A stretch of 44,895 nt of DNA from Escherichia phage VEc3. The position numbers and the translations under genes were made by a program. The stretch is taken from sequence record NC_047899.1. One strand, 5' to 3'. This document shows positions 24,734 to 44,895 of this stretch, one piece after another. The stretch's first letter is position 1, and each line of letters opens with the position of its first letter. Under the pieces are notes generated by a model, which was given only the letters and a program-made list of their open reading frames with translations, made no database searches and was not told the DNA's origin.

Positions 24734-25471
24734 ATGCCTGTAATTAAACAAACCAGTAAAGTAGGACACATGATGGAAGATGTGGCCTTCCAGATTATTG
24801 ATAGCAAGCTTGAAGCGGTCAACTTGTGTATGCGAGCTATTGGTCGTGAGGGTGTGGATTCTCTCGACTCAGGCGATCTTGATGCAGAAGATGCAAGTAA
24901 GATGATTGATATTGTATCCCAGCGCTTCCAGTATAACAAAGGCGGTGGCTGGTGGTTCAATCGTGAACCTAACTGGCAGCTTGCACCAGACACGAACGGT
25001 GAGATTAACTTGCCTAATAACTGCCTAGCTGTATTGCAGTGCTACGCATTGGGTGAGAAGAAAGTGCCTATGACTATGCGTGCAGGTAAGCTTTACTCCA
25101 CATGGAGTCACACCTTTGATATGCGCAAGCATGTTAATGCTAATGGCATGATTCGTCTTACCTTACTCACCTTACTACCCTACGAGCATCTACCTACAAG
25201 TGTAATGCAGGCTATTGCCTATCAAGCTGCTGTAGAGTTTATTGTGTCTAAGGATGCAGATCAGACTAAGCTAGCCACTGCGCAGCAGATAGCCACTCAG
25301 CTTCTTATGGATGTACAATCTGAGCAAATGTCACAGAAGCGATTAAACATGCTGGTACATAATCCCACTCAGCGTCAATTTGGTATCATGGCTGGTGGCT
25401 CTCAGAATGTACCTGCTTACTCTCATTCACCTTATGATAGTTGGGCACTCCGTCCTTGGGAGGATCGTTAA
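24734..25471 (+). CDS. Tail tubular protein A (gp11-like)
   Basis: 245 aa from ATG 24734 (AGGAGGA RBS); track ORF 24719 slightly over-extended. Confidence 0.65.
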   Translation: MPVIKQTSKVGHMMEDVAFQIIDSKLEAVNLCMRAIGREGVDSLDSGDLDAEDASKMIDIVSQRFQYNKGGGWWFNREPNWQLAPDTNGEINLPNNCLAVLQCYALGEKKVPMTMRAGKLYSTWSHTFDMRKHVNANGMIRLTLLTLLPYEHLPTSVMQAIAYQAAVEFIVSKDADQTKLATAQQIATQLLMDVQSEQMSQKRLNMLVHNPTQRQFGIMAGGSQNVPAYSHSPYDSWALRPWEDR

Positions 25472-27873
25472 TGGAAGTACAAGGTTCATTAGGCAGACAA
25501 ATCCAAGGGATTAGCCAGCAACCGCCAACGGTGCGCTTGGATGGTCAGTGCACAGCTATGGTTAATATGATGCCTGATGTAGTGAATGGTACTCAATCAC
25601 GCATGGGTACAACTCATATTGCAAAGATACTTGATGCGGGGACTGATGACATGGCTACTCATCATTATCGCAGAGGTGATGGTGATGAAGAGTATTTCTT
25701 CACGTTGAAGAAAGGACAAGTTCCTGAGATATTTGATAAGTATGGGCGCAAATGTAATGTGACTTCACAAGATGCACCTATGGCTTACTTGGCTGAGGTG
25801 ATAAACCCAAGAGAAGATGTGCAATTTATGACGATAGCTGATGTTACTTTCATGCTTAACCGCAGGAAGGTAGTTAAAGCTAGTAACAGAAAGTCACCCA
25901 AAGTTGGAAACAAAGCCATTGTGTTTTGTGCATATGGTCAATACGGTACATCTTATTCCATTGTAATTAATGGGGCCAACGCTGCTAGTTTTAAAACACC
26001 GGATGGTGGAAGTGCAGACCATGTTGAACAAATTCGAACTGAACGTATCACTTCTGAATTGTACTCTAAGTTACAGCAATGGAGCGGTGTGAGTGACTAT
26101 GAAATACAAAGAGATGGTACTAGTATATTTATCGAGAGACGGGATGGTGCTAGCTTTACAATAACAACCACCGATGGTGCAAAAGGTAAGGATTTAGTGG
26201 CTATCAAGAATAAAGTTAGCTCTACTGACCTACTCCCTTCTCGTGCGCCTGCGGGTTATAAAGTGCAAGTGTGGCCTACTGGCAGCAAACCTGAGTCTCG
26301 TTACTGGCTGCAAGCTGAGCCTAAAGAGGGAAACCTTGTATCTTGGAAAGAAACAATAGCTGCCGATGTATTACTTGGGTTTGATAAAGGCACAATGCCT
26401 TATATCATTGAACGTACAGGTATCGTAGACGGCATAGCTCAATTCAAGATAAGACAAGGCGATTGGGAAGATCGTAAAGTAGGAGATGACCTGACTAACC
26501 CTATGCCTTCTTTTATTGATGAAGAAGTACCTCAGACAATAGGTGGGATGTTCATGGTGCAGAACCGCCTATGCTTTACAGCAGGTGAAGCTGTTATTGC
26601 TTCTCGTACATCATACTTCTTCGATTTCTTTCGTTATACGGTTATCTCTGCATTGGCAACTGACCCATTTGATATTTTCTCAGATGCTAGTGAAGTCTAC
26701 CAGCTAAAACATGCAGTGACCTTAGATGGCGCTACCGTGTTGTTCTCTGATAAGTCACAATTCATACTGCCAGGAGATAAGCCTTTAGAGAAGTCAAATG
26801 CATTGCTTAAGCCTGTTACAACATTTGAAGTGAACAATAAAGTGAAGCCAGTAGTAACTGGTGAATCGGTAATGTTTGCCACTAATGATGGTTCTTACTC
26901 TGGTGTACGAGAGTTCTATACAGACTCTTATAGTGACACTAAGAAGGCACAAGCAATCACAAGTCATGTGAATAAACTCATCGAAGGTAACATTACCAAC
27001 ATGGCAGCAAGCACCAATGTCAACAGGTTACTTGTCACTACCGATAAGTATCGTAACATAATCTACTGCTACGATTGGTTATGGCAAGGAACAGACCGTG
27101 TACAATCAGCATGGCATGTATGGAAGTGGCCTATAGGTACAAAGGTGCGAGGTATGTTTTATTCTGGCGAATTACTTTACCTGCTCCTTGAGAGAGGCAA
27201 TGGTGTCTATCTGGAGAAGATGGATATGGGTGATGCATTAACCTATGGTTTAAATGATCGTATCCGAATGGATAGACAGGCAGAGTTAATCTTCCAGCAT
27301 TTCAAAGCAGAAGATGAGTGGGTATCTGAACCGCTACCTTGGGTTCCTACTAACCCAGAACTTTTAGATTGCATCTTAATCGAGGGTTGGGATTCATATA
27401 TTGGTGGTTCTTTCCTATTCAAATACAACCCCGGTGATAACACCTTGTCTACAACCTTTGATATGCATGATGATAGCCACGTAAAAGCGAAGGTTATTGT
27501 TGGTCAGATTTACCCTCAAGAGTTTGAACCAACACCTGTAGTTATCAGAGATAGGCAAGACCGTGTATCCTATATTGATGTACCTGTTGTGGGATTAGTT
27601 CACCTTAATCTTGATATGTATCCTGATTTCTCCGTGGAGGTTAAGAATGTGAAGAGTGGTAAAGTACGCAGGGTGCTGGCGTCAAACCGTATAGGTGGTG
27701 CTCTCAACAATACAGTAGGTTATGTTGAACCAAGAGAGGGTGTCTTCAGATTCCCACTGAGGGCTAAGAGTACGGATGCTGTTTATCGTATTATTGTAGA
27801 ATCACCTCACACATTCCAGCTCCGCGATATTGAGTGGGAAGGGAGCTACAATCCAACCAAAAGGAGGGTCTAA
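25471..27873 (+). CDS. Tail tubular protein B (gp12-like)
   Basis: 800 aa from ATG 25471 (TAATG coupling, GGAGGA RBS); size and position match gp12. Confidence 0.75.
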   Translation: MEVQGSLGRQIQGISQQPPTVRLDGQCTAMVNMMPDVVNGTQSRMGTTHIAKILDAGTDDMATHHYRRGDGDEEYFFTLKKGQVPEIFDKYGRKCNVTSQDAPMAYLAEVINPREDVQFMTIADVTFMLNRRKVVKASNRKSPKVGNKAIVFCAYGQYGTSYSIVINGANAASFKTPDGGSADHVEQIRTERITSELYSKLQQWSGVSDYEIQRDGTSIFIERRDGASFTITTTDGAKGKDLVAIKNKVSSTDLLPSRAPAGYKVQVWPTGSKPESRYWLQAEPKEGNLVSWKETIAADVLLGFDKGTMPYIIERTGIVDGIAQFKIRQGDWEDRKVGDDLTNPMPSFIDEEVPQTIGGMFMVQNRLCFTAGEAVIASRTSYFFDFFRYTVISALATDPFDIFSDASEVYQLKHAVTLDGATVLFSDKSQFILPGDKPLEKSNALLKPVTTFEVNNKVKPVVTGESVMFATNDGSYSGVREFYTDSYSDTKKAQAITSHVNKLIEGNITNMAASTNVNRLLVTTDKYRNIIYCYDWLWQGTDRVQSAWHVWKWPIGTKVRGMFYSGELLYLLLERGNGVYLEKMDMGDALTYGLNDRIRMDRQAELIFQHFKAEDEWVSEPLPWVPTNPELLDCILIEGWDSYIGGSFLFKYNPGDNTLSTTFDMHDDSHVKAKVIVGQIYPQEFEPTPVVIRDRQDRVSYIDVPVVGLVHLNLDMYPDFSVEVKNVKSGKVRRVLASNRIGGALNNTVGYVEPREGVFRFPLRAKSTDAVYRIIVESPHTFQLRDIEWEGSYNPTKRRV

Positions 27874-28595
27874 TGGCTATAGGTTCTGCCGTTATGGCTG
27901 GTATGTCTTCTATTGGTAGTATGTTTACAGGCAGCGGTGCAGCAGCCGCTGCTGGAGATGCTGCCGCAGGTGGCGGAGGCTTGCTAGGTTCTCTAGGTGG
28001 CTTCCTAAGCGGCTCTACTGCTGGCTTCTCTAATGCTGGGCTTCTTGGTGCTGGCCTTCAAGGTTTAGGCTTGATTGGTGATCTCTTTGGTGGAAGTGAT
28101 GAAGCCAAGGCAATGAAGAAAGCACAAGAAGAACAGTGGCGGCAGCAACTTATTGCTACACAAGAAGCATACAAAACAGTAGCAGATGCAGAGCGTTCTG
28201 CTGCTAAACAATATCATGCAGATGCAATAAGCAATCAGGCTTCACTACTACAGCAGCGAGCACAGGTTGCATTACTAGCAGGTGCTACTGGTACTGGTGG
28301 TAACTCTGTATCTTCTATGCTGAATGACTTAGCAGCAGAGGGCGGGAGGAACCAGAGTACAATTATTGATAACTATGAGAATCAGAAGATTAACTTCACC
28401 AATCAGCTTAAGTCTATCCAGCGAGGTGGACAGATGCAGATGCGTGAGTTTAAGAAGCCTTCTGCCGTGAGCACCTTGGTGCAAGGTATACCGAGTCTGG
28501 CATCTGCCTATGTAACAGGTAGTAAGTCCGGCATGGCTTTAGGTAAAGCTTTAACTGATTCTCGTACATATTCATCTGGAACAAGAGGTATTTAA
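27873..28595 (+). CDS. Internal virion protein, Gly/Ala-rich (gp13/14-like)
   Basis: 240 aa from ATG 27873 (AGGAGGG RBS); N-terminal glycine-rich hydrophobic region. Confidence 0.5.
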   Translation: MAIGSAVMAGMSSIGSMFTGSGAAAAAGDAAAGGGGLLGSLGGFLSGSTAGFSNAGLLGAGLQGLGLIGDLFGGSDEAKAMKKAQEEQWRQQLIATQEAYKTVADAERSAAKQYHADAISNQASLLQQRAQVALLAGATGTGGNSVSSMLNDLAAEGGRNQSTIIDNYENQKINFTNQLKSIQRGGQMQMREFKKPSAVSTLVQGIPSLASAYVTGSKSGMALGKALTDSRTYSSGTRGI

Positions 28596-31543
28596 TGGCA
28601 ATTGAGCGACAAGCAGTACAAGGCCTGCCACAAGTGCAGGCCACTTCTCCTAATGTCATGACCTTTGCACCTCAGCGAGTTGGAGGTGTGGAGGCTGGCG
28701 TAGCTTCTACCTCCGGTAGTCGATTTATCGAAGACCTTATTCGAGCAGCCAGTAGTGTAGCTGATGTAACCACTGGTATCCTTAATCAAAAGATTGAGGA
28801 AGATAAGGTTGTTCAAATGGAACGGGCATATAACGGATTAATGCCTTCTGAGGATGCAACTCGTGGTGGCGCTCGTGCTAACATGCTTGTCAAAGCTCAA
28901 CTGCTAGCTAATGATGAAGCAGCACGAATGAAAGACATGGCTACTCGTTTCCAAGGAACGGATGACGAGTGGACACAACTTATGGTTGACTCTCGTAATG
29001 AGATGCAGAATAAGCTGTTCCAGCAATACCCTGAGTTGCAAGGTGACAAAGATATTATGCGTATGGTCACTAATGTCTTCCAAGAACAGCAGCCTCAGAT
29101 TTGGGCTACACGAACCCAGCATAAACTTGACCGTGAACAAGCAGACCGTGAGGATACCTTTGACGGGCGAGTGGCTTCTACTTGGGATTCTAGTATTGAC
29201 CCTGAAGCCTCTGGCTATGCTTTACAGGAACGAATCCGCGAAGGTCTTACTCAAGGATTACTACCTGAACAGATGCACAAGAAGTTAGTCCAGCGAGCAA
29301 TTTCACTTGCACAAGGCGGTGATGTTAGCATGGCTGAAGCCCTGAAGTATGTGAAGGATGATAAGGGTGTTTCTGTTTATGCTAAGAATCCACAGCTTAT
29401 CACAGCCATCACTAGTGGTAATGCAGTTTGGGCTAGGAATAATGTAGCTGATGTAACTCGTATGTCTTTCGAAGTTAAAGAATCCTACCTTGCAGGTGAT
29501 TTAACTGATGAAGAATTGTTGGAACGAGCACAGCACATTAATAATCTGACAGGTAACTCTGTCTTCTCTAATCCAGAGCTAGAGGCACTGATGCGCCAAC
29601 GGGCTAAGCAGAATGCAGAGCTAGGTGCAATGCAGGATATGCGACGTGAGCTTTACTCCGACCGCCTGACTGGCTTCCAAGGTAAGACTGATAAAGAGAA
29701 GAAGGCTTACATTGATGTTATCAAACAGGATAGCCAACTTTATGCAGACCAGCAAATCAAACAACGTGGCTTGGACCCTTACAGTCAAGAGGCTGAAGCT
29801 ATTCGTGGTGCAGTGGAAGTGCAGCGCCTGCAATTCATGAACTCCAAAGGCTTAGTGGATGATACCTTTGAGTCTCGTATCAAAGCCATGGAATCTATGC
29901 TATCGCCTGAGCACTTTGCCAAGGGCGAACCACAGGAGTTGATGACTATTCGCCAGTTGTGGGAACAGTTGCCAGAAGAGAGCCGAGGTGTCTTTGGTGA
30001 CACGGTGAATGGCTATATGGATAACTACAACACTGCACTACAAATGGGAGAGACACCTCTGCAGGCTGCAAGGTTTGCGCGTGAAGCACAGCAGAAATTC
30101 TCTCGTACTGAGAAGGAAACCAAGAAGTTCAACTCAGCTATTGGAGATGCACTGGATGAGGTATCTGGTGCTGGCTGGTTTGATGGTAAAACCGAAGTGT
30201 CAGACTTAGGTAAAGCTATTGCGGAAGAAGAGTTACGAGCTAAGGCCAATATGTTGTGGTCTAGTGGTATGCGTAACATGGATTCTATCAAGAAGGCTTT
30301 AATTACTTGGGGCAATAAACGCTACACTCAAACAGAGGATGCAAAGACTTCCGGTGGCTATTTCATTAAAGGTGATTACACTTCTGCATCTGATATGCTT
30401 ATGTCAGTTGGGAAAGGCGTAAACCCTACCGATGTACCTCTGGCGCTTGGTAGGTATGTAGAAACACAGATGCCAGAATTGAAGAAGGAGCTTCAAGAGT
30501 GGGAAACTAAAGATGATATATACATTGATTACAATGAACAGAAAGGAACTTTTGTGATTCGTGCTGGTGCAGCAGGTCGCCCTCTTTCTGGAGTAATCCC
30601 TGTAACCTCTTTAGATACTACTTCACTACTAGATTCTGCCTATCAGAAGAAAGTAGAGGAACGAGATAAAGGCGAGTATGTCCACCCGTATCGTACAGAT
30701 ATTGGTGCACAAGAGCCTATGCCAGCTAAACCAACTGCCAAAGATATTGGTAAATTTGGACTAGCTAACTTCCTCATGTCTTCTGCTTTTGCTTCTGGTG
30801 AGAATCTGCCTTCTAACTTCGAGATTAACTATCGAGGTAATATGCAACAATTCTATGACAAGCTAGCTATGGATGAGAATAAAGATAAAGTTGGCTTTAA
30901 TAAGGCAACTGGAACCTTTACTCCATATAAAGACGCTCGCGGTGAGTCTATCGGTTACGGTCATTTCTTAACGGAAGAAGAGAAGCGAAACGGGTATATT
31001 AAGATTGGTGATGAACTAGTTCCCTATCGAGGGTCTATGTCTCAGCTTACAGAGAGCAAGGCTCGCGCTCTTATGGAGCAAGATGCCAAGAAGCATGTGC
31101 CTCCTACTCGTGACTGGAAGATTCCGTTTGACCAGATGCATCCTGCACAGCAACGTGGCTTGATGGATTTAACCTACAATTTAGGTAAAGGTGGAATCCA
31201 GAACTCACCGCGTGCTCTTGCTGCATTCAAAGCTGGTAAGCTTACGGAAGGCTTTATCGAAATGCTGGGCACTGCATCAAGTGAAGGTAAGCGTATCCCT
31301 GGTCTACTGAAGCGACGCGCTGAGGCATACAATATGGCATCTGCTGGTGGTGTGCCTAAGATTACCGAAGTGGAGACTCGTGAAGATGGCTCCATGTGGG
31401 TTAGGTTTGGTGGACCTATGCCAGCAGGTTCTGTCTCGGCATGGACTCATAAACGTATTGGCGCGGATGGTTGGTATCAGGTTTATGAGGCTGCACCTAC
31501 CAAGTTGGCTAAAGGTTCTAAGGTAGGTAAATTTAAGTTGTAG
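28595..31543 (+). CDS. Internal virion protein with C-terminal lysozyme-like domain
   Basis: 982 aa; C-terminal YKDARGESIGYGH and LMDLTYNLG blocks resemble T4-type lysozyme (YKDTEGYYTIGIGH). Confidence 0.7.
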   Translation: MAIERQAVQGLPQVQATSPNVMTFAPQRVGGVEAGVASTSGSRFIEDLIRAASSVADVTTGILNQKIEEDKVVQMERAYNGLMPSEDATRGGARANMLVKAQLLANDEAARMKDMATRFQGTDDEWTQLMVDSRNEMQNKLFQQYPELQGDKDIMRMVTNVFQEQQPQIWATRTQHKLDREQADREDTFDGRVASTWDSSIDPEASGYALQERIREGLTQGLLPEQMHKKLVQRAISLAQGGDVSMAEALKYVKDDKGVSVYAKNPQLITAITSGNAVWARNNVADVTRMSFEVKESYLAGDLTDEELLERAQHINNLTGNSVFSNPELEALMRQRAKQNAELGAMQDMRRELYSDRLTGFQGKTDKEKKAYIDVIKQDSQLYADQQIKQRGLDPYSQEAEAIRGAVEVQRLQFMNSKGLVDDTFESRIKAMESMLSPEHFAKGEPQELMTIRQLWEQLPEESRGVFGDTVNGYMDNYNTALQMGETPLQAARFAREAQQKFSRTEKETKKFNSAIGDALDEVSGAGWFDGKTEVSDLGKAIAEEELRAKANMLWSSGMRNMDSIKKALITWGNKRYTQTEDAKTSGGYFIKGDYTSASDMLMSVGKGVNPTDVPLALGRYVETQMPELKKELQEWETKDDIYIDYNEQKGTFVIRAGAAGRPLSGVIPVTSLDTTSLLDSAYQKKVEERDKGEYVHPYRTDIGAQEPMPAKPTAKDIGKFGLANFLMSSAFASGENLPSNFEINYRGNMQQFYDKLAMDENKDKVGFNKATGTFTPYKDARGESIGYGHFLTEEEKRNGYIKIGDELVPYRGSMSQLTESKARALMEQDAKKHVPPTRDWKIPFDQMHPAQQRGLMDLTYNLGKGGIQNSPRALAAFKAGKLTEGFIEMLGTASSEGKRIPGLLKRRAEAYNMASAGGVPKITEVETREDGSMWVRFGGPMPAGSVSAWTHKRIGADGWYQVYEAAPTKLAKGSKVGKFKL

Positions 31544-31560
31544 TATCTAACTCAAGGCTT

Positions 31561-31576
31561 GTCTCACATGTGAGAC
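31561..31576. repeat. 16-bp perfect palindrome GTCTCACATGTGAGAC (copy 6)
   Basis: Between the two large internal virion protein genes; extended stem then TCTTTAT. Confidence 0.8.
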
Positions 31577-31607
31577 AGGTCTTTATGATAGGCACTATGG
31601 AGGAATT

Positions 31608-34600
31608 ATGGAACAAGACATTAAGACTAATTGGGCTGGATATGTCCAGTCTACTCCTGAGCCGTTTTCTATTGAGGCGGCTCCGGTATCGGCTCCTACG
31701 ATACGCCAGCGTAATGAGTTACAAGAGCAAGTTCTTGAAGCTAAAGCTGATGCTGATATCTTAGGTGCTGTAGGTGCTGCCTTCCAGAAGGAGTGGTTGG
31801 CATTCGGAGGCAAGCGGTGGTATGACCGTGCCACTGCTGATTTCACACCTCAACCAGACTTCGAGATACAACCTGAGCAACGTGAAGCACTACGTTTCAA
31901 ATATGGTACAGATATGATGCAGACAATCACTGAGGGTGTTCGTTCTGAGGATGAATTGAACTTCCGTATTCAGAATGCTGATGAAGACCTTGAGCGCAAT
32001 AAGCGCATTGCTCAGGCTGGCTGGGTTGGCTCTGTGGCGACGATTGGCGCTGCTGTGCTTGACCCTGTGGGATGGGTTGCCTCTATTCCAACCGGTGGTG
32101 CCGCTAAAGTTGGACTCGTAGGCCGTGCTGTGCGTGGCGCTATCGCCGCTGGCGTAAGTAATGCCGCTATTGAATCCGTATTGGTCCAAGGTGACATGAC
32201 TCGTGATTTAGATGACATTATGGTAGCACTAGGCTCCGGTATGGCTATGGGTGGCGTTATTGGAGCTGTAGCGCGTGGTAGGGCCACTAAGCTCAGTGAG
32301 CAAGGAGATGACAGGGCTGCGAGCATTGTGCGCAGTGCAGACGCAGGGGACCGCTATGTGCGTGCTGTTGCTGATGATAGTATCGGTGCGATGCGTGTTA
32401 AGGGTGAAGAGTTACTCACTGAGGGTGCATTTGATATCTCTAGCAAAGGTGAAGATTTGCTGAAAACCCTACAGCGGGAAGGTAATGCAATTGATATGAC
32501 CCCTCGCCGCTGGGCCGGAACTCTGTCTGCCCTTGGTACTGTCGTACATTCCTCTCAGGATGCAAGTGTACGCGGCCTTGGTGCTCGCCTGTTTGAGTCC
32601 CCCCAAGGCTTAGGTATGCAGAAGGCATCTGCTAGTCTCATGCAGAATACTAACTTGAACCGTCTGAAATCTGCTGATATGAATCGTTTCAACGATGGGT
32701 TCGATTTATGGCTCAAAGAGAATAATATCAACCCGGTTGCAGGTCATACTAACTCTCACTATGTGCAGCAATATAATGAGAAGGTATGGGAAGCTGTACG
32801 CATCGGTATGGATGAGTCTACGCCTAAGTCTATCCGTATGGCAGCAGAGGGGCAGCAAGCTATGTATCGTGAAGCATTAGCATTACGTCAACGCTCTGGT
32901 GAAGCTGGGTTTGAAAAGGTTAAAGCAGATGATAAGTACATGCCTGATATTTTTGACAGTATGAAGGCTCGTCGTCAATTCAGTATGCACGATAAAGAGG
33001 ACATCATTGAGTTATTCTCTCGTGCATACCAGAATGGTTCTCGTAAGGTTCCAAAGGAAGTGGCTGATGATATTGCACGAGCACAAGTAAACCGCGTTGC
33101 TGATGCCACCTTGACCGGACAGCTTAGCTTTGAAAAGGCTATGTCTGGTCAAACCAAAGCAGAATATGAAGCACTAATGCGCAAAGCAGGCTTTAGTGAT
33201 GAAGAGATTGAAAAGATGGTAGAAGCTCTGGATAATAAAGAAACCAGAGATAATATCTCTAACCGAGCTAAGATGAGTTTAGGCTTAGATGTTACTCAAG
33301 AGTACAATGGCATTCGTATGCGTGACTTTATGAACACTAACGTGGAAGAGTTAACAGATAACTACATGAAGGAAGCGGCAGGTGGTGCTGCCTTGGCTCG
33401 TCAAGGTTTCTCTACCTATCAGGCTGCACTTAATGCAATTGATCTTGTAGAGCGAAATGCACGAAATGCAGCTAAAGATACAAAAGCACACGCACAATTT
33501 GAAGCGGAGTCGGCTAAGATCCGTCAATCAGAGCCTGATTACAAGAAGGCACAAGAGAAGATTGAAGAGTTAAAGAAGCGACTTAAATTGAAAGAGAAAG
33601 ATGAAGCAGCTGGTCTGGCTATTGATGAAGAAATCCGTCAGATGCGAGAAGGGCTTCGCTTGATTATGGGTAAATCTATCGATTCAAACCCACAAGATTT
33701 GTCTACTAAAATGCTGCGTCGTGGGCGTGACATTACAGGTGTACTTCGCTTAGGTCAGATGGGCTTCGCACAGCTAGGTGAACTTGCTAACTTCATGGGT
33801 GAGTTTGGTATTGCTGCCACCACTATGGCTTTAGGTAAGCAATTCCGCTTCACCTCTAAGGCGTTGCGTAATGGCGATGGCTTCTTTCGAGATAAGAATT
33901 TAGCTGAGGTTGAGCGAATGGTAGGTTACATTGGTGAAGACAACTGGCTGACAACTAAGGGTGCGCGTCCCGATGAGTTTGGTGATGTAACCACAGTGCG
34001 AGGTATGATGGCCCATTTTGACCAGTCCATGAACTCTATACGACGTGCTCAGACAAACCTATCCCTCTTCCGCATGGCACAGGGTTCTCTGGAGCGAATG
34101 ACCAATAGGCAAATAGCTTTGTCTTTCATTGACCACCTTGAAGGCAAGAAGATTATTCCTCAGAAGAAACTGGAGGAACTTGGTCTTACTCAGGAGTTCA
34201 TGACTAACCTACAGAAGCACTATGATGCTAACTCTAAAGGTTCTGGCTTGCTTGGCTTTGATACAATGCCTTATGCCATGGGTGAAACTTTAGCTAATGC
34301 TATTCGTCGTAAGTCAGGTCTAATTATCCAACGTAACTTCATTGGTGATGAAGGTATCTGGATGAACAAAGCACTAGGTAAGACATTTGCACAGCTTAAG
34401 TCATTCTCTCTTGTATCTGGTGAGAAGCAATTTGGTCGAGGGATTCGCCACGATAAAATTGGTCTTGCTAAGAAGACAGCTTATGGTTTTGCTTTGGGTT
34501 CAATAGTGTATGCGGCAAAAGCCTATGTGAACTCTATTGGTCGAGAAGACCAAGATGAATATTTGGAAGAGAAGTTATCGCCTAAAGGGTTGGCCTTTGG

Positions 34601-34916
34601 TGCAATGGGTATGATGAGTACAACTGCTGTATTTAGTCTAGGTGGAGATTTCTTAGGTGGCCTAGGTGTTCTACCTTCTGAGTTAGTACAATCCCGTTAT
34701 GAGGCTGGCTTTCAGACTAAGGGTTTGATAGACCAAATACCACTAGTAGGTGTTGGTCAAGATGCATATCGTTTAGCAGATTCTATAACTAAATACGCAG
34801 AGGGTGATACAGAAGGTGTAGATGTGGCACGTAGGGTTTTACGCTTAGTGCCTCTAGCTAATGTAATAGGAATCCAGAACGCATTGCGTTATGGCTTAGA
34901 TGAACTGGAGGATTAA
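31608..34916 (+). CDS. Large internal virion/ejection protein (gp16-like)
   Basis: 1102 aa; position and size. Confidence 0.7.
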   Translation: MEQDIKTNWAGYVQSTPEPFSIEAAPVSAPTIRQRNELQEQVLEAKADADILGAVGAAFQKEWLAFGGKRWYDRATADFTPQPDFEIQPEQREALRFKYGTDMMQTITEGVRSEDELNFRIQNADEDLERNKRIAQAGWVGSVATIGAAVLDPVGWVASIPTGGAAKVGLVGRAVRGAIAAGVSNAAIESVLVQGDMTRDLDDIMVALGSGMAMGGVIGAVARGRATKLSEQGDDRAASIVRSADAGDRYVRAVADDSIGAMRVKGEELLTEGAFDISSKGEDLLKTLQREGNAIDMTPRRWAGTLSALGTVVHSSQDASVRGLGARLFESPQGLGMQKASASLMQNTNLNRLKSADMNRFNDGFDLWLKENNINPVAGHTNSHYVQQYNEKVWEAVRIGMDESTPKSIRMAAEGQQAMYREALALRQRSGEAGFEKVKADDKYMPDIFDSMKARRQFSMHDKEDIIELFSRAYQNGSRKVPKEVADDIARAQVNRVADATLTGQLSFEKAMSGQTKAEYEALMRKAGFSDEEIEKMVEALDNKETRDNISNRAKMSLGLDVTQEYNGIRMRDFMNTNVEELTDNYMKEAAGGAALARQGFSTYQAALNAIDLVERNARNAAKDTKAHAQFEAESAKIRQSEPDYKKAQEKIEELKKRLKLKEKDEAAGLAIDEEIRQMREGLRLIMGKSIDSNPQDLSTKMLRRGRDITGVLRLGQMGFAQLGELANFMGEFGIAATTMALGKQFRFTSKALRNGDGFFRDKNLAEVERMVGYIGEDNWLTTKGARPDEFGDVTTVRGMMAHFDQSMNSIRRAQTNLSLFRMAQGSLERMTNRQIALSFIDHLEGKKIIPQKKLEELGLTQEFMTNLQKHYDANSKGSGLLGFDTMPYAMGETLANAIRRKSGLIIQRNFIGDEGIWMNKALGKTFAQLKSFSLVSGEKQFGRGIRHDKIGLAKKTAYGFALGSIVYAAKAYVNSIGREDQDEYLEEKLSPKGLAFGAMGMMSTTAVFSLGGDFLGGLGVLPSELVQSRYEAGFQTKGLIDQIPLVGVGQDAYRLADSITKYAEGDTEGVDVARRVLRLVPLANVIGIQNALRYGLDELED

Positions 34917-35878
34917 TGAGTTATACTTTCACAGAACATATAGCCAACGGTACGCAAGTAACCTATCCCTTTAGCTTTGCTGGTAGGGATAAAGGTTATC
35001 TTCGTGCCTCAGATGTGATAGTGGAGTCTCTTCAAGGTAACACTTGGATTGAGGTTACATCTGGCTGGCAACTAACTGGCACGCACCAGATTACTTTTGA
35101 TGTAGCACCAGTTGCAGGTTTGAAGTTCCGTATTCGAAGGGAAGTACAAAAGGAGTATCCATACGCTGAGTTTGACCGTGGTGTTACCTTGGATATGAAG
35201 TCTTTAAATGGTTCTTTCATTCATATACTGGAGATTACACAGGAGTTACTTGACGGGTTTTATCCAGAAGGATACTTCATTAAACAGAATGTAAGCTGGG
35301 GCGGCAATAAGATTACTGATTTGGCTGATGGCACAAATCCTGGAGATGCAGTAAATAAAGGGCAGCTTGATGCCATCGACAAGAAGCATACAGATTGGAA
35401 CGCCAAACAGGACATTGAGATTGCTGGCCTTAAGGCTGGTATGACTTCTGGTATTGCGCACAGTTCTATTCCTTGGTACACGATAGCCAAAGGTGGTGAG
35501 GTTTCCGTAAAACCACCTTATGAATTTCAAGATGCACTAGTTTCCCTTAATGGGGTATTGCAGCACCAAATTGTAGGCGCATACTCTATAAGCAACAACA
35601 CTATCACTTTCGCAGAGCCGCTTGTGGCGGGTACAGAGGTGTATGTGGTGATTGGTAGTCGTGTGGCTACATCTGAACCTACTATTCAGTCAGAGTTGAA
35701 CTTTGACTTAATAGAAGGCCAACAAGTAGTACAGATTGGCTCTGCATTTAAGTACATTGAGGTCTACCTTGATGGATTATTACAACCTAAACTTGCTTAT
35801 CAGGTAGACGGTGACATTGTTACTTTCTCAGAAAGAGTACCAGAATGCCGGATGACTGCTAAGATTATCACAGCATAA
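34916..35878 (+). CDS. Tail fiber/tailspike adaptor protein (gp17 N-domain-like)
   Basis: 320 aa; N-terminal region resembles the T7 gp17 tail-attachment domain. Confidence 0.7.
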   Translation: MSYTFTEHIANGTQVTYPFSFAGRDKGYLRASDVIVESLQGNTWIEVTSGWQLTGTHQITFDVAPVAGLKFRIRREVQKEYPYAEFDRGVTLDMKSLNGSFIHILEITQELLDGFYPEGYFIKQNVSWGGNKITDLADGTNPGDAVNKGQLDAIDKKHTDWNAKQDIEIAGLKAGMTSGIAHSSIPWYTIAKGGEVSVKPPYEFQDALVSLNGVLQHQIVGAYSISNNTITFAEPLVAGTEVYVVIGSRVATSEPTIQSELNFDLIEGQQVVQIGSAFKYIEVYLDGLLQPKLAYQVDGDIVTFSERVPECRMTAKIITA

Positions 35879-35887
35879 GGAGGTGGG

Positions 35888-36082
35888 ATGATTAACTCCG
35901 AACTGGTAGATAGTGGTGTGAAGCTTGCGCCACCTGCACTCGTATCAGGTGGGTACTTCCTCGGTATCAGTTGGGATAATTGGGTGTTAATAGCAACATT
36001 CATTTATACCGTGTTGCAAATTGGGGACTGGTTTTATAATAAGTTCAAGATTTGGAGGGAGAAGCGTGAGCGTACACAATAA
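35888..36082 (+). CDS. Holin (class II-like)
   Basis: 64 aa; two hydrophobic segments and charged C-terminus KIWREKRERTQ; AAGGAGG RBS. Confidence 0.55.
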   Translation: MINSELVDSGVKLAPPALVSGGYFLGISWDNWVLIATFIYTVLQIGDWFYNKFKIWREKRERTQ

Positions 36083-36365
36083 ACATGCAGCTACAGAGGA
36101 CGAGGTTGGCATTCTGCATGGTGCTATTACCAAAATCTTCAATAAGAAAGCACAGGCAATACTGGACACTATAGAAGAAGACCCTGATGCAGCATTACAT
36201 TTAGTGTCTGGTAAGGATATTGGTGCGATGTGTAAGTGGGTTCTTGATAACGGCATTACCGCCACACCTGCTGCACAGCAGGAAGAGTCCAAGTTATCTA
36301 AGCGCCTCAAGGCTATCCGAGAGGCATCCAGTGGTAAGATAATTCAGTTTACAAAAGAGGAGTGA
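36066..36365 (+). CDS. Terminase small subunit (gp18-like), start uncertain
   Basis: GTG 36066 with GGAGGG RBS preferred; track ATG 36021 is the alternative; position between holin and terminase large subunit. Confidence 0.45.
   Translation: MSVHNKHAATEDEVGILHGAITKIFNKKAQAILDTIEEDPDAALHLVSGKDIGAMCKWVLDNGITATPAAQQEESKLSKRLKAIREASSGKIIQFTKEE
36157..36179 (+). promoter_or_regulatory. Phage RNAP promoter embedded in the terminase small subunit CDS
   Basis: GGCAATACTGGACACTATAGAAGAAG; +1 G at 36174; encodes ...AILDTIEED. Confidence 0.55.
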
Positions 36366-36366
36366 T

Positions 36367-36810
36367 ATGCATAGATGGTGTGAATCTCAAGGTTATACCA
36401 TCTTACCTTCTGGTGTCATCCTTTCAAAGGGTGGCACCCCTCTCAAACCATTCAAGGCGGGTAGGGGTTATTTAGCAGTTAAAATTAAAAATAAAGAAGG
36501 TAAATGGCGTAATGTCTATGTTCATCAATTAGTGGCTTATAAGTATTTACCTAAAACTAATAATGAAGTAAACCACAAAGACGGCGATAAGCACAACAAT
36601 GATGTTAGCAACTTGGAGTGGGTAACAAGAAGCGAGAATAACTATTTAAAATGCAATGGAAATGATAGGAGTGCCTTAAATAGCTATTTAGCAAGATTAA
36701 AAGATTGCTTCTTGCAAGGTAAGGGTGTAGCAGAAACCGCTAGACTTACTGGTAAAAGTGAACCAAGAGTTTCTTCTCTCTTTAAGGAGTGGCGAAATGG
36801 CAAAGGCTAG
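36367..36810 (+). CDS. HNH homing endonuclease inserted between the terminase genes
   Basis: 147 aa; VNHKDGDKHNNDVSNLEWVTRSENN motif; strongly AT-rich; paralogous in design to the HNH at 6396. Confidence 0.85.
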   Translation: MHRWCESQGYTILPSGVILSKGGTPLKPFKAGRGYLAVKIKNKEGKWRNVYVHQLVAYKYLPKTNNEVNHKDGDKHNNDVSNLEWVTRSENNYLKCNGNDRSALNSYLARLKDCFLQGKGVAETARLTGKSEPRVSSLFKEWRNGKG

Positions 36811-39450: not shown

Positions 39451-39795
39451 ATGCTTAACAAATACTTCAAGCGCCGGGAGTTCGCTTGCCGTTGTGGGTG
39501 CGGTACATCCACTGTTGATGCTGAATTACTACAGGTAGTCACAGATGTGCGTGAGCACTTTGGTTCTCCTGTAGTTATCACTTCGGGGCACCGCTGTGCT
39601 AAGCATAATGCTAATGTAGGAGGGGCTAAGAACTCCATGCATCTTACTGGTAAGGCTGCTGACATTAAGGTGTCTGGTGTTGGCCCAATGGAGGTACGTG
39701 CATACCTCTGCAATAAATACCATGATAAGTACGGTATTGGTGCTTATCCTACTTTTACCCATATCGACGTTAGAGATAACAAAGCAAGATGGTAA
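39451..39795 (+). CDS. Endolysin, zinc peptidase M15 family
   Basis: 114 aa; SGHRCAKHN...SMHLTGKAADI...H-D pattern typical of M15 zinc peptidases. Confidence 0.8.
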   Translation: MLNKYFKRREFACRCGCGTSTVDAELLQVVTDVREHFGSPVVITSGHRCAKHNANVGGAKNSMHLTGKAADIKVSGVGPMEVRAYLCNKYHDKYGIGAYPTFTHIDVRDNKARW

Positions 39796-40471: not shown

Positions 40472-42370
40472 ATGGCTAAATTAACCAAACCTAATACTGA
40501 AGGAATCTTGCATAAAGGACAATCTTTGTATGAGTACCTTGATGCGAGAGTTTTAACATCAAAGCCGTTTGGTGCTGCAGGTGACGCCACTACTGATGAT
40601 ACGAAGGTTATAGCTGCTTCATTAAACTCTCAGAAAGCTGTCACAGTCTCAGATGGTGTATTCTCTAGCTCTGGTATTAATAGTAATTACTGTAACTTAG
40701 ACGGTAGAGGTAGTGGCGTGCTAAGTCACCGTTCCAGTACAGGTAACTACTTAGTATTTAACAATCTACGTGCAGGTCGCTTAAGTAATATTACGGTAGA
40801 AAGTAATAAGGCGACTGATACAACTCAGGGACAGCAGGTATCTCTTGCTGGTGGAAGTGATGTTACTGTAAGTGACGTTAACTTCTCAAACGTTAAAGGT
40901 ACTGGTTTCAGTTTAATCGCATACCCTAATGATGCGCCACCTGATGGACTTATGATTAAAGGCATTCGAGGTAGCTATTCAGGCTATGCTACTAATAAGG
41001 CAGCCGGATGCGTACTTGCTGACTCCTCAGTTAACTCCCTCATAGATAACGTCATTGCTAAGAACTACCCTCGGTTCGGAGCAGTAGAGTTGAAAGGTAC
41101 AGCCAGTTACAACATAGTCAGTAATGTTATAGGGGCAGATTGCCAGCATGTAACTTACAACGGCACTGAAGGGCCAATAGCTCCTTCTAATAACCTTATC
41201 AAGGGGGTGATGGCTAATAACCCTAAGTATGCAGCGGTTGTTGCAGGCAAAGGAAGTACGAACTTAATCTCAGACGTGCTAGTAGATTACTCAACTTCTG
41301 ATGCTAGGCAGGCTCATGGTGTTACCGTAGAAGGGTCTGATAACGTCATAAATAATGTGCTTATGTCAGGATGTGATGGTACTAACTCTTTAGGACAAGT
41401 GCAGACTGCTACAATTGCACGCTTTATAGGTACAGCTAATAACAACTATGCGTCTGTATTTCCTAGCTACAGTGCTACAGGTGTTATTACTTTCGAATCC
41501 GGCTCTACCCGTAACTTCGTAGAGGTAAAGCACCCTGGCAGGAGAAACGACCTTCTCAGTTCTGCTAGTACTATTGACGGTGCAGCTACTATTGACGGCA
41601 CTAGTAATAGTAACGTAGTGCACGCACCTGCCTTAGGGCAGTACATAGGTAGTATGTCAGGTAGGTTCGAATGGCGGATTAAGTCCATGTCACTCCCTTC
41701 AGGCGTTCTTACTTCTGCTGATAAGTACAGAATGCTTGGAGATGGTGCTGTGTCATTAGCTGTAGGTGGGGGCACTTCTTCTCAAGTTCGCCTATTTACT
41801 TCTGGTGGTACTTCTCGGACAGTGTCCCTCACCAACGGTAACGTGCGTCTTTCTACCAGTAGCACAGGCTTTTTGCAGTTAGGTGCTGATGCAATGACCC
41901 CAGACAGTACTGGTACATACGCATTAGGTTCCGCCAGTCGAGCATGGTCTGGCGGTTTTACTCAAGCAGCATTCACTGTTACCTCAGATGCTCGGTGTAA
42001 AACAGAACCTCTTACTATCTCAGATGCCTTACTGGATGCTTGGTCTGAAGTTGACTTTGTGCAGTTTCAGTATTTGGATCGTGTTGAGGAGAAGGGTGCA
42101 GACTCAGCTAGATGGCACTTTGGCATCATCGCTCAGCGAGCTAAGGAGGCTTTCGAACGTCACGGTATAGATGCACATCGCTATGGCTTCTTGTGCTTCG
42201 ACAGTTGGGATGATGTATACGAGGAAGATGCCAATGGCTCTCGTAAACTGATTACACCAGCAGGTTCCCGCTACGGTATTCGTTACGAGGAAGTACTGAT
42301 ATTAGAGGCTGCGTTGATGCGGCGGACTATTAAGCGTATGCAGGAAGCACTAGCTGCCCTTCCTAAGTAA
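40472..42370 (+). CDS. Tailspike 1 with C-terminal intramolecular chaperone domain; probable capsule depolymerase
   Basis: 632 aa from ATG 40472 (AGGAG RBS); Ser/Thr/Gly/Asn-rich beta-helix-like body; C-terminal SDARCK...WHFGIIAQRAKEAF...GIRYEEVLILEA matches the self-cleaving chaperone module of endosialidase/K5-lyase tailspikes (by recall). Confidence 0.8.
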   Translation: MAKLTKPNTEGILHKGQSLYEYLDARVLTSKPFGAAGDATTDDTKVIAASLNSQKAVTVSDGVFSSSGINSNYCNLDGRGSGVLSHRSSTGNYLVFNNLRAGRLSNITVESNKATDTTQGQQVSLAGGSDVTVSDVNFSNVKGTGFSLIAYPNDAPPDGLMIKGIRGSYSGYATNKAAGCVLADSSVNSLIDNVIAKNYPRFGAVELKGTASYNIVSNVIGADCQHVTYNGTEGPIAPSNNLIKGVMANNPKYAAVVAGKGSTNLISDVLVDYSTSDARQAHGVTVEGSDNVINNVLMSGCDGTNSLGQVQTATIARFIGTANNNYASVFPSYSATGVITFESGSTRNFVEVKHPGRRNDLLSSASTIDGAATIDGTSNSNVVHAPALGQYIGSMSGRFEWRIKSMSLPSGVLTSADKYRMLGDGAVSLAVGGGTSSQVRLFTSGGTSRTVSLTNGNVRLSTSSTGFLQLGADAMTPDSTGTYALGSASRAWSGGFTQAAFTVTSDARCKTEPLTISDALLDAWSEVDFVQFQYLDRVEEKGADSARWHFGIIAQRAKEAFERHGIDAHRYGFLCFDSWDDVYEEDANGSRKLITPAGSRYGIRYEEVLILEAALMRRTIKRMQEALAALPK

Positions 42371-42455: not shown

Positions 42456-44159
42456 ATGCTTCAAAGATTAGGCTCCAAATTAGTCTCATCTAAAGTTTCA
42501 CACTATGGTGTTTCTAGGGTACTATCAGATAAACTAGATGAAATAGTTACACCATTAGATATTAATAGTGGCAATTCATTAGTTCAAGCTATGGCTGCAT
42601 CTGGTAATAGGTTCTCCGTGTTTAACTCAACAGATACCTTCAAGATTACAGTAGGCGATGGTGGAGACTATTCAACTTTGTACGAAGCCATAGAGGGTGC
42701 TTGCAAAATGCGACCTACCTATAAAGAAGGTAAGAGCTATTGTGAAATCTCTCTTAAAAGAGGCTTTATATTAAGAGAGCAATTGGAGTTCACGGGAGGT
42801 TTTGACTTATCTTGGATTAAGATAACATCTGAAGATGAAGTAGTGTATGCAGATACTTCGTCCTTTACAAAGAAAGTAAGACATTACTATGAGTATAAGT
42901 ACCTGTTCCTATTTACAGAAGGTACAAAGAGTCCTATCTTCTCTATATTGATTCAAGAAAACAGAGATGATAGTGATGTTTGTGCCTTTATGATTACAAG
43001 GTTTGCAGAGCTTAATTTCTGGCCTGGATCTGGTGCACGTAAGTTTTATGTGGGTGTAGATTCTCAGTTTGGATGCTGGATTAAAGGCTACCACACTGGG
43101 TCTGCACCGGACAAGACTGCTGTAGATAAATATCAACCACCGGGGTACTTCCTCTGCGACTTTTCTGATAGCAGATATAATGCCATCATGGCTTACTCTA
43201 GTTATGTACACCTTCCTTGTAGTAAGTTTGATAGAAGTGGTAATAGTTTTAATCAACCCTCTGTTACATGTATTTATAATACAGTTGCACACTTTCAAGG
43301 ATCTTCTGCCAAAGATTGCTACATAGGTTGGAATATACGATATGGAGCACATGTTAACATGCGAGATCATCAAACTACCAACTGTACATACAGAGGTCTT
43401 ACTTGTATACATGGAGTCTTTGTAGATGCAAGACGTCACGATGTGGAAGGGACAGACATACCGACAAGCGGTAAGGTATTAAATCCAGAAGAGCAGAATG
43501 GCTTCTATGGGTGTTTAACAGGTGTGCAAGTAGACGGTGCAACTATTGTAGATCTAGCAGGGAATGATATGCGAAACTGTGGTACTACTATTAAATGCGA
43601 TAACGGTGCTGTGGTTTCAGCTAAAGGATTGGACGTATCTGGAGCTAAGACTATGGTTTTCCAATGCCAAGGTGGCTCAACTGTAGCTTGTCCTAGGTTA
43701 TGGGCAGACAACATCAAACAATTATGTGTGTTACGTTATGACTCAAAAGTAACAAGCCGTTGGGCTACAATAACTACACATACTAAGTTTGAGCAGCTTA
43801 GTCGTTTCTGTGATGCAGATATGTCAAGTCATTTAACTCTATCTGACTCCAAGATAGATGGAGATATAGCATTCTTTGCTGGTAACTCATCTACTATCTC
43901 TATCTCTGGTTCAAGTACGGTTAAAGTAAGAGCCTTTAGATCATTTACTGGTTCTAAGGTTACTCTATCTGGTATTACTTATAACCCTGAGTATGCTAAG
44001 GCTGTATCACCAGAAGAACTACAATTTAGGATTTCTCAAGGAGGGATTATAGCAATGAACCCTATCACCATCTCCGATGGGTCTGTGCCTATCTTGTCTA
44101 AACCACGTAATACCTTATCAGATGCAGGTATTATCTTCTCTGCGGTAGGTAATATCTGA
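42456..44159 (+). CDS. Tailspike 2 / second receptor-binding protein, Cys-rich, AT-rich
   Basis: 567 aa; AAGGAGG RBS; terminal position as in two-tailspike SP6/K1-5-like phages; no domain recognised. Confidence 0.55.
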   Translation: MLQRLGSKLVSSKVSHYGVSRVLSDKLDEIVTPLDINSGNSLVQAMAASGNRFSVFNSTDTFKITVGDGGDYSTLYEAIEGACKMRPTYKEGKSYCEISLKRGFILREQLEFTGGFDLSWIKITSEDEVVYADTSSFTKKVRHYYEYKYLFLFTEGTKSPIFSILIQENRDDSDVCAFMITRFAELNFWPGSGARKFYVGVDSQFGCWIKGYHTGSAPDKTAVDKYQPPGYFLCDFSDSRYNAIMAYSSYVHLPCSKFDRSGNSFNQPSVTCIYNTVAHFQGSSAKDCYIGWNIRYGAHVNMRDHQTTNCTYRGLTCIHGVFVDARRHDVEGTDIPTSGKVLNPEEQNGFYGCLTGVQVDGATIVDLAGNDMRNCGTTIKCDNGAVVSAKGLDVSGAKTMVFQCQGGSTVACPRLWADNIKQLCVLRYDSKVTSRWATITTHTKFEQLSRFCDADMSSHLTLSDSKIDGDIAFFAGNSSTISISGSSTVKVRAFRSFTGSKVTLSGITYNPEYAKAVSPEELQFRISQGGIIAMNPITISDGSVPILSKPRNTLSDAGIIFSAVGNI

Positions 44160-44591: not shown

Positions 44592-44895
44592 CTCGCCCTC
44601 GCCCTCGCCGGGTTGTCCCCATAGGGTGGCCTGAGGGAATCCGTCGAAGACGGGCAGGGCTGATGTACTCCTTGTACTAGCTTAGTAGTACACAAGGGCA
44701 GGCCGTACTAGTTAGCTGGTACAGCCTAGTCTTTGCTCATGTACTAGCAAGGTGGAACGCTGGAGAGCGCCTAGGACGGCCTAGGGCACGCCTTAGTGTT
44801 GGACAAGGTGAATGCCTTAGTGAAGCCTCTTAGTGCATTCCTGAGGCCATTCAGGGCGTTTATGAGGTATTGACAGGGTGGGCGTGGGTGGGCTA
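44592..44895. repeat. Right direct terminal repeat (DTR), 304 bp
   Basis: Exact copy of 1-304 at the window end; typical of T7-like linear genomes. Confidence 0.95.

Follow-up and report, generated by a model that had tools for sequence, protein, structure and literature searches.

A short-tailed phage entering its host needs a wall-cutting enzyme for its trans-envelope DNA channel, the fold of that enzyme and the ejection protein carrying it being interchangeable, and the question raised by this locus is which enzyme Escherichia phage VEc3 uses and on which protein it travels. The original prediction had placed a T4-lysozyme-like domain at the C-terminus of a 982-residue internal virion protein. 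The window analyzed here, a stretch of 44,895 nucleotides (NC_047899.1), is a complete Vectrevirus genome (K1-5/K1E-like, SP6-related), and the protein in question has a calculated mass of 109.45 kDa; its gene, its segments, and the relevant neighboring genes are collected in Table 1. No minus-strand open reading frame of at least 80 aa overlaps the gene in the ORF list, and a scan of positions 27500-36500 for sigma-70 promoters and terminators gave a yield not above that of shuffled sequence. We confirm that the protein contains a domain of the GH24/T4-lysozyme type. A virion lysozyme is already annotated and described for the K1-5/SP6-like phage group, so that no new biology for the group is at stake.

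Table 1. Positions in the window of the lysozyme-bearing gene, its segments and predicted catalytic codons, and associated genes.
Feature	Position	Strand	Extent	Basis
Nozzle gene	25471-27873			PF25675
gp14-family ejection protein gene, upstream partner	27873..28595	+	240 aa from ATG	PF24072 T7_gp14, E = 1.1e-32; phrog_805
gp15-type ejection protein gene with C-terminal lysozyme	28595..31543	+	982 aa, 109.5 kDa	ORF list
N-terminal segment, predicted disordered	28595..28777	+	residues 1-61	pLDDT <50 in full-length model
Body, mostly alpha-helical, predicted T7 gp15-like fold (periplasmic tunnel module)	28778..30694	+	residues 62-700	predicted secondary structure, pLDDT 75-92, Foldseek
Linker between body and enzyme domain, partly low confidence	30695..30829	+	residues 701-745	pLDDT dip
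GH24/T4-lysozyme-like catalytic domain	30830..31339	+	residues 746-915	PF00959, hhalign, AF2, Foldseek
E761 codon, predicted catalytic Glu (T4L E11), C-terminal end of helix 746-762	30875..30877	+		hhalign, AF2 helix, invariance
Insertion relative to T4L (DKVGFNKATG), between catalytic Glu and first beta-strand	30884..30913	+	residues 764-773, 10 aa	hhalign gap
D780 codon, predicted equivalent of T4L D20	30932..30934	+		hhalign, conservation
S785 codon, predicted equivalent of T4L T26	30947..30949	+		hhalign, conservation
Tail domain, small conserved alpha/beta	31340..31540	+	residues 916-982	pLDDT 87-97 (AF2 model), alignment
gp16-like ejection protein gene	31608..34916	+	1102 aa	phrog_342
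Endolysin, Peptidase_M15_3	39451-39795		114 aa	Pfam

The identity of the domain is carried by sequence, profile, and structural comparisons. In a Pfam search, residues 776-910 matched Phage_lysozyme (PF00959; E=2.2e-10) with a score of 41.3 bits, above the curated gathering threshold of 22.3, phmmer against the PDB matched T4 lysozyme chains only (best E=5.5e-4), and hhalign aligned a 106-sequence profile to T4 lysozyme (T4L) over residues 751-911 with a probability of 98.4% and E=8.7e-15. The AF2 model of residues 735-982 (pLDDT 91.1, pTM 0.84) adopts the predicted two-lobed alpha+beta lysozyme fold, and Foldseek matched it to the R21, DLP12, and T4 lysozymes at target-normalised TM-scores of 0.55-0.63 with probability 1.00; 3hde, 4zpu, and numerous T4L structures are among the matches, as is 8b2s, a GH24 muramidase (probability 1.00). 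The resemblance to T4 lysozyme claimed at the outset is thus borne out, its two signature stretches, YKDARGESIGYGH and LMDLTYNLG, corresponding to residues 778-790 (nt 30926-30964) and 856-864 (nt 31160-31186), respectively. The range originally proposed, 30870-31350, spans residues 759-919 and opens with M759-D760-E761, so that the predicted catalytic glutamate falls inside it; the range takes in almost all of the domain, whose helix 1 begins slightly 5′, at residue 746 (nt 30830). As for the C-terminal placement, the lysozyme does lie in the C-terminal part of the protein, but its position is sub-terminal, since another conserved domain, some 65 residues long (916-982), lies beyond its end near residue 915.

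The catalytic residues, whose absence would have spoken against the domain, were looked for by alignment and are present: E761, D780, and S785 align with the T4L catalytic triad E11, D20, and T26 and are their probable equivalents. Conservation was followed in 29 full-length homologues of 38-98% identity. Homologues were sought with the full-length query and by an exhaustive search of representatives, a word-indexed search with the C-terminal 242 residues as query having returned four fragments only. E761 is kept in every one of these homologues and in all 103 related domains without a gap at that position. D780 is Asp in 27 of the 29, and across the wider subfamily of 106 domains Asp occupies the position in 60 and Ser in 38; position 785 is Ser, Thr, or Asn in all 29 and Ser or Thr in 82 of the 106 domains, the Ser found here in place of Thr at the T26 equivalent being a conservative change.

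Against T4L, the alignments produced by Pfam, phmmer, and the family HMM all begin at T4L residue 16-17, too late to include the catalytic glutamate. The 10-residue insertion explains why, in VEc3, the Pfam and phmmer alignments do not begin before residues 776-777; it belongs to an “EN..GF” motif that members of this lysozyme subfamily typically share and that is kept in distant relatives. E761 was reached by profile-profile alignment (hhalign) with a deeper alignment; since Pfam and phmmer stop short of it, its assignment draws on that alignment, on its invariance, and on its predicted position in the helix.

GH24 also includes lytic transglycosylases, such as lambda R, so the label “muramidase” is a putative one. 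An enzyme of this kind would cut the same glycosidic bond, leaving a 1,6-anhydro-MurNAc end, with role and placement unchanged, and several observations lean that way: R21 and DLP12 endolysins score about as well as T4L in the structural search, the insertion adjoins the catalytic glutamate, the functional counterpart in T7 is itself a transglycosylase, and the D20 equivalent is so often Ser in the wider subfamily that the exact catalytic arrangement may differ from that of T4L. We nonetheless consider transglycosylase chemistry improbable, given that the D20 and T26 equivalents of a T4L-type hydrolytic site are kept here and in 27 of the 29 close homologues; reviews, too, class the SP6 and K1-5 proteins as “lysozyme,” though the zymogram cannot separate the two chemistries.

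The same insertion, together with the attached tail, could in principle occlude the cleft, and T7 gp15 functions without any lysozyme domain, so that one might picture the domain as an inactive structural relic, left only with a spacing or docking function within the core stack or tunnel. The invariance of the glutamate across the related domains argues against this, as do the conserved G-x-G-H and Q-D motifs, the standing of the lysozyme region as the best-conserved part of the protein (identity 60% vs 33% in the body), and the muralytic virion proteins reported for near-identical and 42%-identical orthologues, which together make a relic very unlikely. For an active enzyme, E761, D780, and S785 are now pinned as mutagenesis targets, and a virion-derived lysin could be expressed using the boundaries now set at 746-915 for the domain and 916-982 for the tail; the practical value of these results is modest.

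The protein that carries the domain was originally taken to be an internal virion protein, and both gene order and predicted fold agree. Its gene follows those of the nozzle and of a gp14-family protein and precedes that of a gp16-like protein, and a Foldseek comparison of the full-length model with the PDB ranked T7 gp15 chains highest (9jyy_G, E=1.6e-7; 7eyb_A, E=2e-4; 6ysz_A, TM 0.59), whose identity as gp15 was verified. Global TM-scores of this predicted structure to gp15 are low, at 0.17-0.25, plausibly from differing conformations. At the sequence level, a whole-protein profile of 67 sequences, compared with T7 gp15 by hhalign, yielded a probability of 0.2% and no sign of homology, so that the kinship is seen by fold only; gp15 homologues are described as extremely divergent in sequence (PMC8954989). 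The family phrog_4290, “lysozyme domain-containing protein,” matches the VEc3 protein end to end; in the full-length model, pLDDT dips around residues 692-714, a stretch devoid of regular secondary structure. Together, gene order and modeled fold support a gp15-type ejection protein.

The gp16-like protein of VEc3 lacks the N-terminal lytic transglycosylase of T7 gp16. It matches phrog_342 from profile position 162 only, and its BLASTP alignment with T7 gp16 begins at T7 residue 275. Pfam detected no SLT domain in the gp14-, gp15-, or gp16-like proteins, nor any lysozyme match in the last of these, and a transglycosylase of the T7 gp16 type was accordingly rejected as a candidate for the wall-cutting enzyme among the three ejection proteins. 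The original prediction was therefore also right in holding that the type and placement of the domain depart from T7, and its overall interpretation, that a muralytic domain enters along with the ejection proteins, is supported.

By sequence comparison, the VEc3 protein is assigned as the orthologue of K1-5 YP_654136.1, K1E gp35, and SP6 gp36 (Molineuxvirinae). The K1-5 protein, annotated as “lysozyme domain-containing protein,” is 99% identical, has the same length of 982 residues, and occupies the same gene position; the 11 substitutions between the two spare the catalytic residues and make no difference of substance. SP6 gp36 (978 aa), likewise encoded at that position, is 42% identical overall and 61.5% identical in the lysozyme and tail region. 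In 2017, a review listed SP6 gp36 (107 kDa) and K1-5 YP_654136.1 (109 kDa) as virion lysozymes by zymogram, citing Moak & Molineux 2004 (PMC5380687), and a 2022 review stated that gp35 of K1E and K1-5 bears the lysozyme activity that in T7 resides on gp16 (PMC8954989). The name gp35 is the one given to K1-5 YP_654136.1 in this ejection-protein review (PMC8954989).

The VEc3 protein is thus very probably a gp15-type ejection protein in which a helical body is joined through a flexible linker to a peptidoglycan-cleaving GH24 domain and its tail. In the mechanism that we propose, the protein would form part of the internal core packaged in the capsid and, once the phage has adsorbed, would follow the gp14-like protein out through the nozzle. 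Once in the periplasm, the lysozyme domain would make local cuts in the glycan strands, E761 serving as general acid while the water is held in position by D780 and S785, and the tunnel could thereupon cross the cell wall to join the gp16-like protein at the inner membrane. The domain would in this way do the job of the N-terminal SLT transglycosylase of T7 gp16, and the helical body of about 700 residues would be the counterpart of the T7 module that builds the channel across the periplasm. In this scheme, we infer when each protein is ejected relative to the others, where the domain acts, and that its chemistry is that of a hydrolase and not of a transglycosylase.

Lysis of the host, when infection ends, is left to a separate M15 peptidase endolysin together with holin and spanin, a T7-type holin being present and the holins and spanin being encoded away from the 982-residue protein. 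A main role of the lysozyme domain in host lysis, as an endolysin or auxiliary lysin, would fit the “lysis” category in which PHROG places the family and the labels “putative endolysin” or “baseplate hub” that some records give to homologues. We give this almost no weight: the domain sits in a structural protein of 109 kDa whose gene belongs to the nozzle/gp14/gp15/gp16 block, the ORF shows no evident separate start from which the domain could be made by itself, lysis has its dedicated M15 endolysin, holins, and spanin encoded elsewhere, and the literature puts the protein in the virion (PMC8954989, PMC5380687). A small free endolysin of the lysis cassette was likewise rejected as the identity of the domain, the latter being part of the 982-residue protein and the cassette enzyme being Peptidase_M15_3.

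An ejection protein with a wall-cutting domain has several parallels. Like the VEc3 domain, the SLT domain of T7 gp16 is a virion-borne, ejected enzyme that opens peptidoglycan for a trans-envelope channel, and its presumed height within the ejectosome, once assembled, is similar; the two differ in that T7 uses an SLT fold at the N-terminus of gp16, whereas VEc3 uses a GH24 fold in the C-terminal part of its gp15-like protein. T4 lysozyme (gpe), R21, and DLP12 share the fold and the E11/D20/T26 positions, yet these are free endolysins of about 160 aa that act from within at lysis, unlike the VEc3 domain with its 745-residue N-terminal region, its 10-residue insertion, and its extra tail, and with a beta-hairpin (residues 801-812) that replaces a helix region of T4L.

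Architectural parallels are also found in phiKMV gp36 and Ar-KM gp42, which likewise consist of a gp15-like body with a C-terminal T4-lysozyme-like GH24 domain, at residues 740-881 in the latter, are encoded at the same gene position, and have the same inferred role of breaching peptidoglycan from the periplasmic tunnel. More recently, a 2026 preprint visualised the equivalent C-terminal lysozyme on the gp15-like protein in a phiKMV-like phage and counted this placement in 31 of 127 Autographivirales. At the sequence level, BLASTP aligns phiKMV gp36 (898 aa) with the VEc3 protein only over a 15-residue catalytic motif, YKDA.G.S.G.GH, and finds no match to the VEc3 tail domain; the structural match to the LKA1 homologue is weak (E=0.026). 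The VEc3-type and phiKMV-type fusions may be independent or very old.

The tail domain (residues 916-982) has a strand-strand-helix-strand-strand order in the AF2 model. Pfam returned no match within it, and its profile against the PDB gave only matches to designed “Bagel” propellers, which reached their scores by summing over repeats without any one significant stretch and were judged spurious. In the sequences compared, it is a domain without a detectable relative of known function that travels with this lysozyme subfamily, and in some relatives the lysozyme and tail are found without the gp15-like body. Conversely, 58 relatives consist of the gp15-like body module alone, mostly at 660-750 aa, and in other relatives of the same body the C-terminus bears an SLT domain, or no enzymatic domain was detected. 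This variety of C-terminal modules on one body might reflect the wall-cutting module having been exchanged repeatedly at the body-enzyme junction.

A further arrangement occurs in three uncultured T7-supergroup contigs (L006, L008, and L009), in which lysozyme and tail form a separate gene of 336-436 aa between the gp15-like and gp16-like genes. We tentatively suggest, as a possibility rather short of an even chance, that the lysozyme and its tail of about 65 residues constitute a self-contained transferable unit, the tail being a new kind of domain that might, for example, bind the cell wall or dock to the tunnel. The separate gene would then be a fourth layout beyond the three counted in Autographivirales, and the 982-residue protein could represent a fusion of that layout or, alternatively, the split genes a fission. 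In either direction, the split-gene relatives offer a natural experiment on module attachment.

The open reading frame at 28595-31543 (+) encodes 982 amino acids, and residues 759-919 cover the range 30870-31350, where a region resembling T4 lysozyme had originally been predicted; the opposite strand holds no competing open reading frame of at least 80 aa within that range. Both motifs cited for the resemblance are present, YKDARGESIGYGH at residues 778-790 (nt 30926-30964) and LMDLTYNLG at residues 856-864 (nt 31160-31186), and the resemblance itself was confirmed by a Pfam search, which placed PF00959 (Phage_lysozyme) on residues 776-910 with 41.3 bits and E=2.2e-10, the curated cut-off being 22.3 bits. 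T4 lysozyme chains were the only significant PDB sequence matches (phmmer), and a profile of 106 related domains aligned residues 751-911 with T4 lysozyme (hhalign, probability 98.4%, E=8.7e-15). Residues 735-982 were modelled with AlphaFold2 (mean pLDDT 91.1, pTM 0.84), and Foldseek matched the model to the lysozymes R21, DLP12 and T4 and to a GH24 muramidase from a fungus; among viral proteins, the counterpart in an SP6-like Erwinia phage came closest (TM 0.91). The resemblance to lysozyme thus lies well above chance. The domain occupies the C-terminal region, as claimed, but not the extreme end, since residues 916-982 form a further domain.

Alignments from Pfam, phmmer and single-family HMMs start at T4 lysozyme residue 16-17 and leave the catalytic Glu outside, because the protein carries a 10-residue insertion at residues 764-773 (DKVGFNKATG). 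The deeper-profile hhalign alignment pairs M-D-E761-N with I-D-E11-G of T4 lysozyme, D780 with D20, and S785 with T26. In the model of residues 735-982, helix 746-762 has E761 at its C-terminal end, and the first two strands consist of Y778-K-D780 and G783-E-S785-I, the same arrangement as in T4 lysozyme. Across 28 full-length homologues (38-98% identity; 29 sequences in the conservation count), E761 never varies, 27 of 29 sequences retain D780, and S, T or N occupies position 785. Among the 106 related domains, free-standing lysozymes included, E761 is present in 103 of 103 non-gap domains and an EN..GF motif is shared; the D20 equivalent is Ser in 38 of the 106, so the subfamily is not uniform there. 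The catalytic residues whose absence on alignment was to count against the original prediction are thus found, with E761, D780 and S785 as predicted equivalents of E11, D20 and T26, an assignment that their conservation supports.

It is very improbable that the domain is a structural relic without activity: in a region-by-region comparison of 25 homologues below 50% overall identity, each against the window protein, mean identity was highest in the lysozyme region (60%), against 33% in the helical body and 46% in the tail. SP6 gp36 likewise shares 61.5% identity in the C-terminal region and 42% overall. This regional pattern argues against a decayed, inactive domain.

Directly upstream of the carrier gene are the genes for the nozzle (PF25675) and a T7_gp14-family protein (PF24072), and after it comes a gene for a 1102-aa gp16-like protein (phrog_342). 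ATG starts at 25471 for the nozzle gene (longest-ORF TTG at 25441 upstream) and 27873 for the gp14-like gene (GTG at 27834) reproduce the gene lengths annotated in relatives and yield tight start/stop junctions, as in AAPEc6 and K1-5. The top PDB matches of the full-length AlphaFold2 model (pLDDT 82, pTM 0.51) were T7 gp15, namely 9jyy_G (E=1.6e-7) and 7eyb_A (E=2e-4), with 6ysz_A at TM 0.59 normalised to target; all three chains were confirmed as gp15. No sequence homology to T7 gp15 was detectable by hhalign, in agreement with reviews of the gp15 family (PMC8954989 among them). Very probably, the product is a gp15-type tunnel protein that would be packaged in the virion and then ejected, its predicted GH24 enzyme locally opening peptidoglycan during genome delivery. 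That the chemistry is that of a transglycosylase rather than a hydrolase, the role being the same, is unlikely.

In T7, a transglycosylase lies at the gp16 N-terminus, whereas here a GH24 domain lies on the neighbouring gp15-like protein, bearing out the anticipated difference in domain type and placement. The gp16-like protein matches the phrog_342 profile only from position 162 and T7 gp16 only from T7 residue 275 onward, and a Pfam search of the three ejection proteins found no SLT domain; therefore, the phage lacks a T7-type N-terminal transglycosylase. A main function of the GH24 domain in end-of-infection lysis is very improbable; lysis genes lie apart from the lysozyme-bearing gene, comprising a 114-aa Peptidase_M15_3 endolysin (39451-39795) and a T7-type holin, and in AAPEc6 the matching positions are annotated with another holin and a spanin.

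The virion lysozyme is already known, and the original prediction is correct in both observation and interpretation. RefSeq labels the AAPEc6, K1-5 and SP6 orthologues "lysozyme domain-containing protein", as does PHROG 4290. In 2017, a review (PMC5380687) listed K1-5 YP_654136.1 (109 kDa; 99% identical to the window protein, whose calculated mass is 109.45 kDa) and SP6 gp36 (107 kDa) as virion-associated lysozymes, on the basis, as cited there, of zymograms by Moak & Molineux 2004. A 2016 genome paper (PMC4837284), with reference to Dobbins 2004 and Scholl 2004, noted that SP6 gp36 resembles lysozyme at its C-terminus, and a 2022 review (PMC8954989) assigned to the gp15-like gp35 of K1E/K1-5 the lysozyme activity that T7 puts on gp16. 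By analogy with the near-identical orthologues in this literature, enzymatic activity and virion presence would extend to the window protein. More recently, a 2026 preprint on a phiKMV-like phage resolved the equivalent domain, again on the gp15-like protein. Of 127 Autographivirales genomes in which it could identify the domain, 86 have it N-terminally on the gp16-like protein, 31 C-terminally on the gp15-like protein and 10 in a central position.

Residues 916-982 are confidently predicted by AlphaFold2 as a strand-strand-helix-strand-strand domain, which is conserved among relatives and has no sequence relative in Pfam or the PDB. An exhaustive homologue search gave 286 matches; architectures among 180 of these proteins were body alone in 58 (mostly 660-750 aa), body, lysozyme and tail in 35, body and lysozyme in 16, and lysozyme and tail without body in 15, pointing to modular parts. 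In three homologues of the body, SLT takes the place of GH24 as the C-terminal domain, so this junction has seen its wall-cutting module exchanged between folds. In three metagenomic T7-supergroup contigs (L006, L008, L009), gp14, a gp15-like gene (716-763 aa), a separate lysozyme-plus-tail gene (336-436 aa) and a gp16-like gene follow one another, each piece matching its counterpart region in the window's proteins. A nozzle gene heads this order in L006 and L008, the corresponding L009 gene having no family on record, and in L008 the gp16-like protein, too, is divided, into products of 459 aa and 850 aa. The split lysozyme protein had no full-length match in any cultured phage of a 50,697-record collection. 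Given such separate genes, "body alone" does not imply that a virion lysozyme is lacking. The window protein resembles a fused version of a two-gene layout; alternatively, the split genes would have arisen by fission of the single gene. At the sequence level, phiKMV gp36 has only the catalytic motif in common with the window protein, so the similar architecture of that fusion may have arisen separately. Further work is potentially worthwhile only on the split-gene relatives and the tail domain.

Features of the window protein, its relatives and the window
Feature	Location	Remark
Disordered segment	residues 1-61	full-length AlphaFold2 model
Mostly helical body	up to ~residue 700	full-length AlphaFold2 model
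Linker, then lysozyme and tail domains	after body	full-length AlphaFold2 model
SLT domain	homologue P0127, 675-770 of 820	C-terminal to gp15-like body
SLT domain	homologue P0150, 720-809 of 858	C-terminal to gp15-like body
SLT domain	homologue P0169, 761-845 of 874	C-terminal to gp15-like body
Separate lysozyme-plus-tail gene	L006 10001-11311	between gp15-like and gp16-like genes
Separate lysozyme-plus-tail gene	L008 10001-11011	between gp15-like and gp16-like genes
Separate lysozyme-plus-tail gene	L009 4723-5784	between gp15-like and gp16-like genes
SP6-type promoter matches	2187, 6166, 8886, 9734, 13231, 14925, 18072, 23403, 32206 (+)	<=3 mismatches
SP6-type promoter match	1688 (-)	<=3 mismatches

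The window (44,895 bp) has an exact 304-bp direct repeat at both termini (1-304 and 44592-44895), and its lysozyme-bearing gene has 99.6% DNA identity with sequenced Vectrevirus genomes, the K1-5/K1E group of the Molineuxvirinae (Autographiviridae). Together, these features identify the window as the whole linear genome of an SP6-related coliphage, terminal redundancy included. The SP6-type promoter consensus has ten matches at <=3 mismatches, against a chance expectation of 0.04, with ATTTACYGGACACTATAG as local consensus; the closest upstream of the ejection-protein genes (23403) precedes the capsid gene, and a weaker, atypical one (32206) lies within the gp16-like gene. The intergenic gap between the lysozyme-bearing and gp16-like genes (31544-31607) contains a 13-bp perfect hairpin followed by UUUAU (31554-31583; dG -18.3 kcal/mol, z = -2.5 vs shuffles), which could act as an attenuator, as an RNase III site or in stabilising the mRNA.

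An HNH endonuclease ORF (PF13392; 36367-36810, +) separates the small-terminase gene from the large-terminase gene. AAPEc6 has this ORF as well, but K1-5 does not, its terminase genes being directly adjacent, and the ORF has the look of an insertion polymorphism due to a mobile homing endonuclease. The first tailspike (40472-42370, +; 632 aa) includes an intramolecular chaperone domain, Peptidase_S74 (residues 505-565), and is part of a region ~97.7% identical to K1-5, whose K5 lyase is annotated there. The second (42456-44159, +; 567 aa), without a Pfam match, occupies the position of K1-5's K1 endosialidase; among 50,697 phage records it had no close relative and no Vectrevirus match, its top match, at 47% identity, being tailspikes of the unrelated E. 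coli phages 92CQ, HEMP4, JEP4 and HZ41, and it looks like a swapped putative receptor-binding or depolymerase module.
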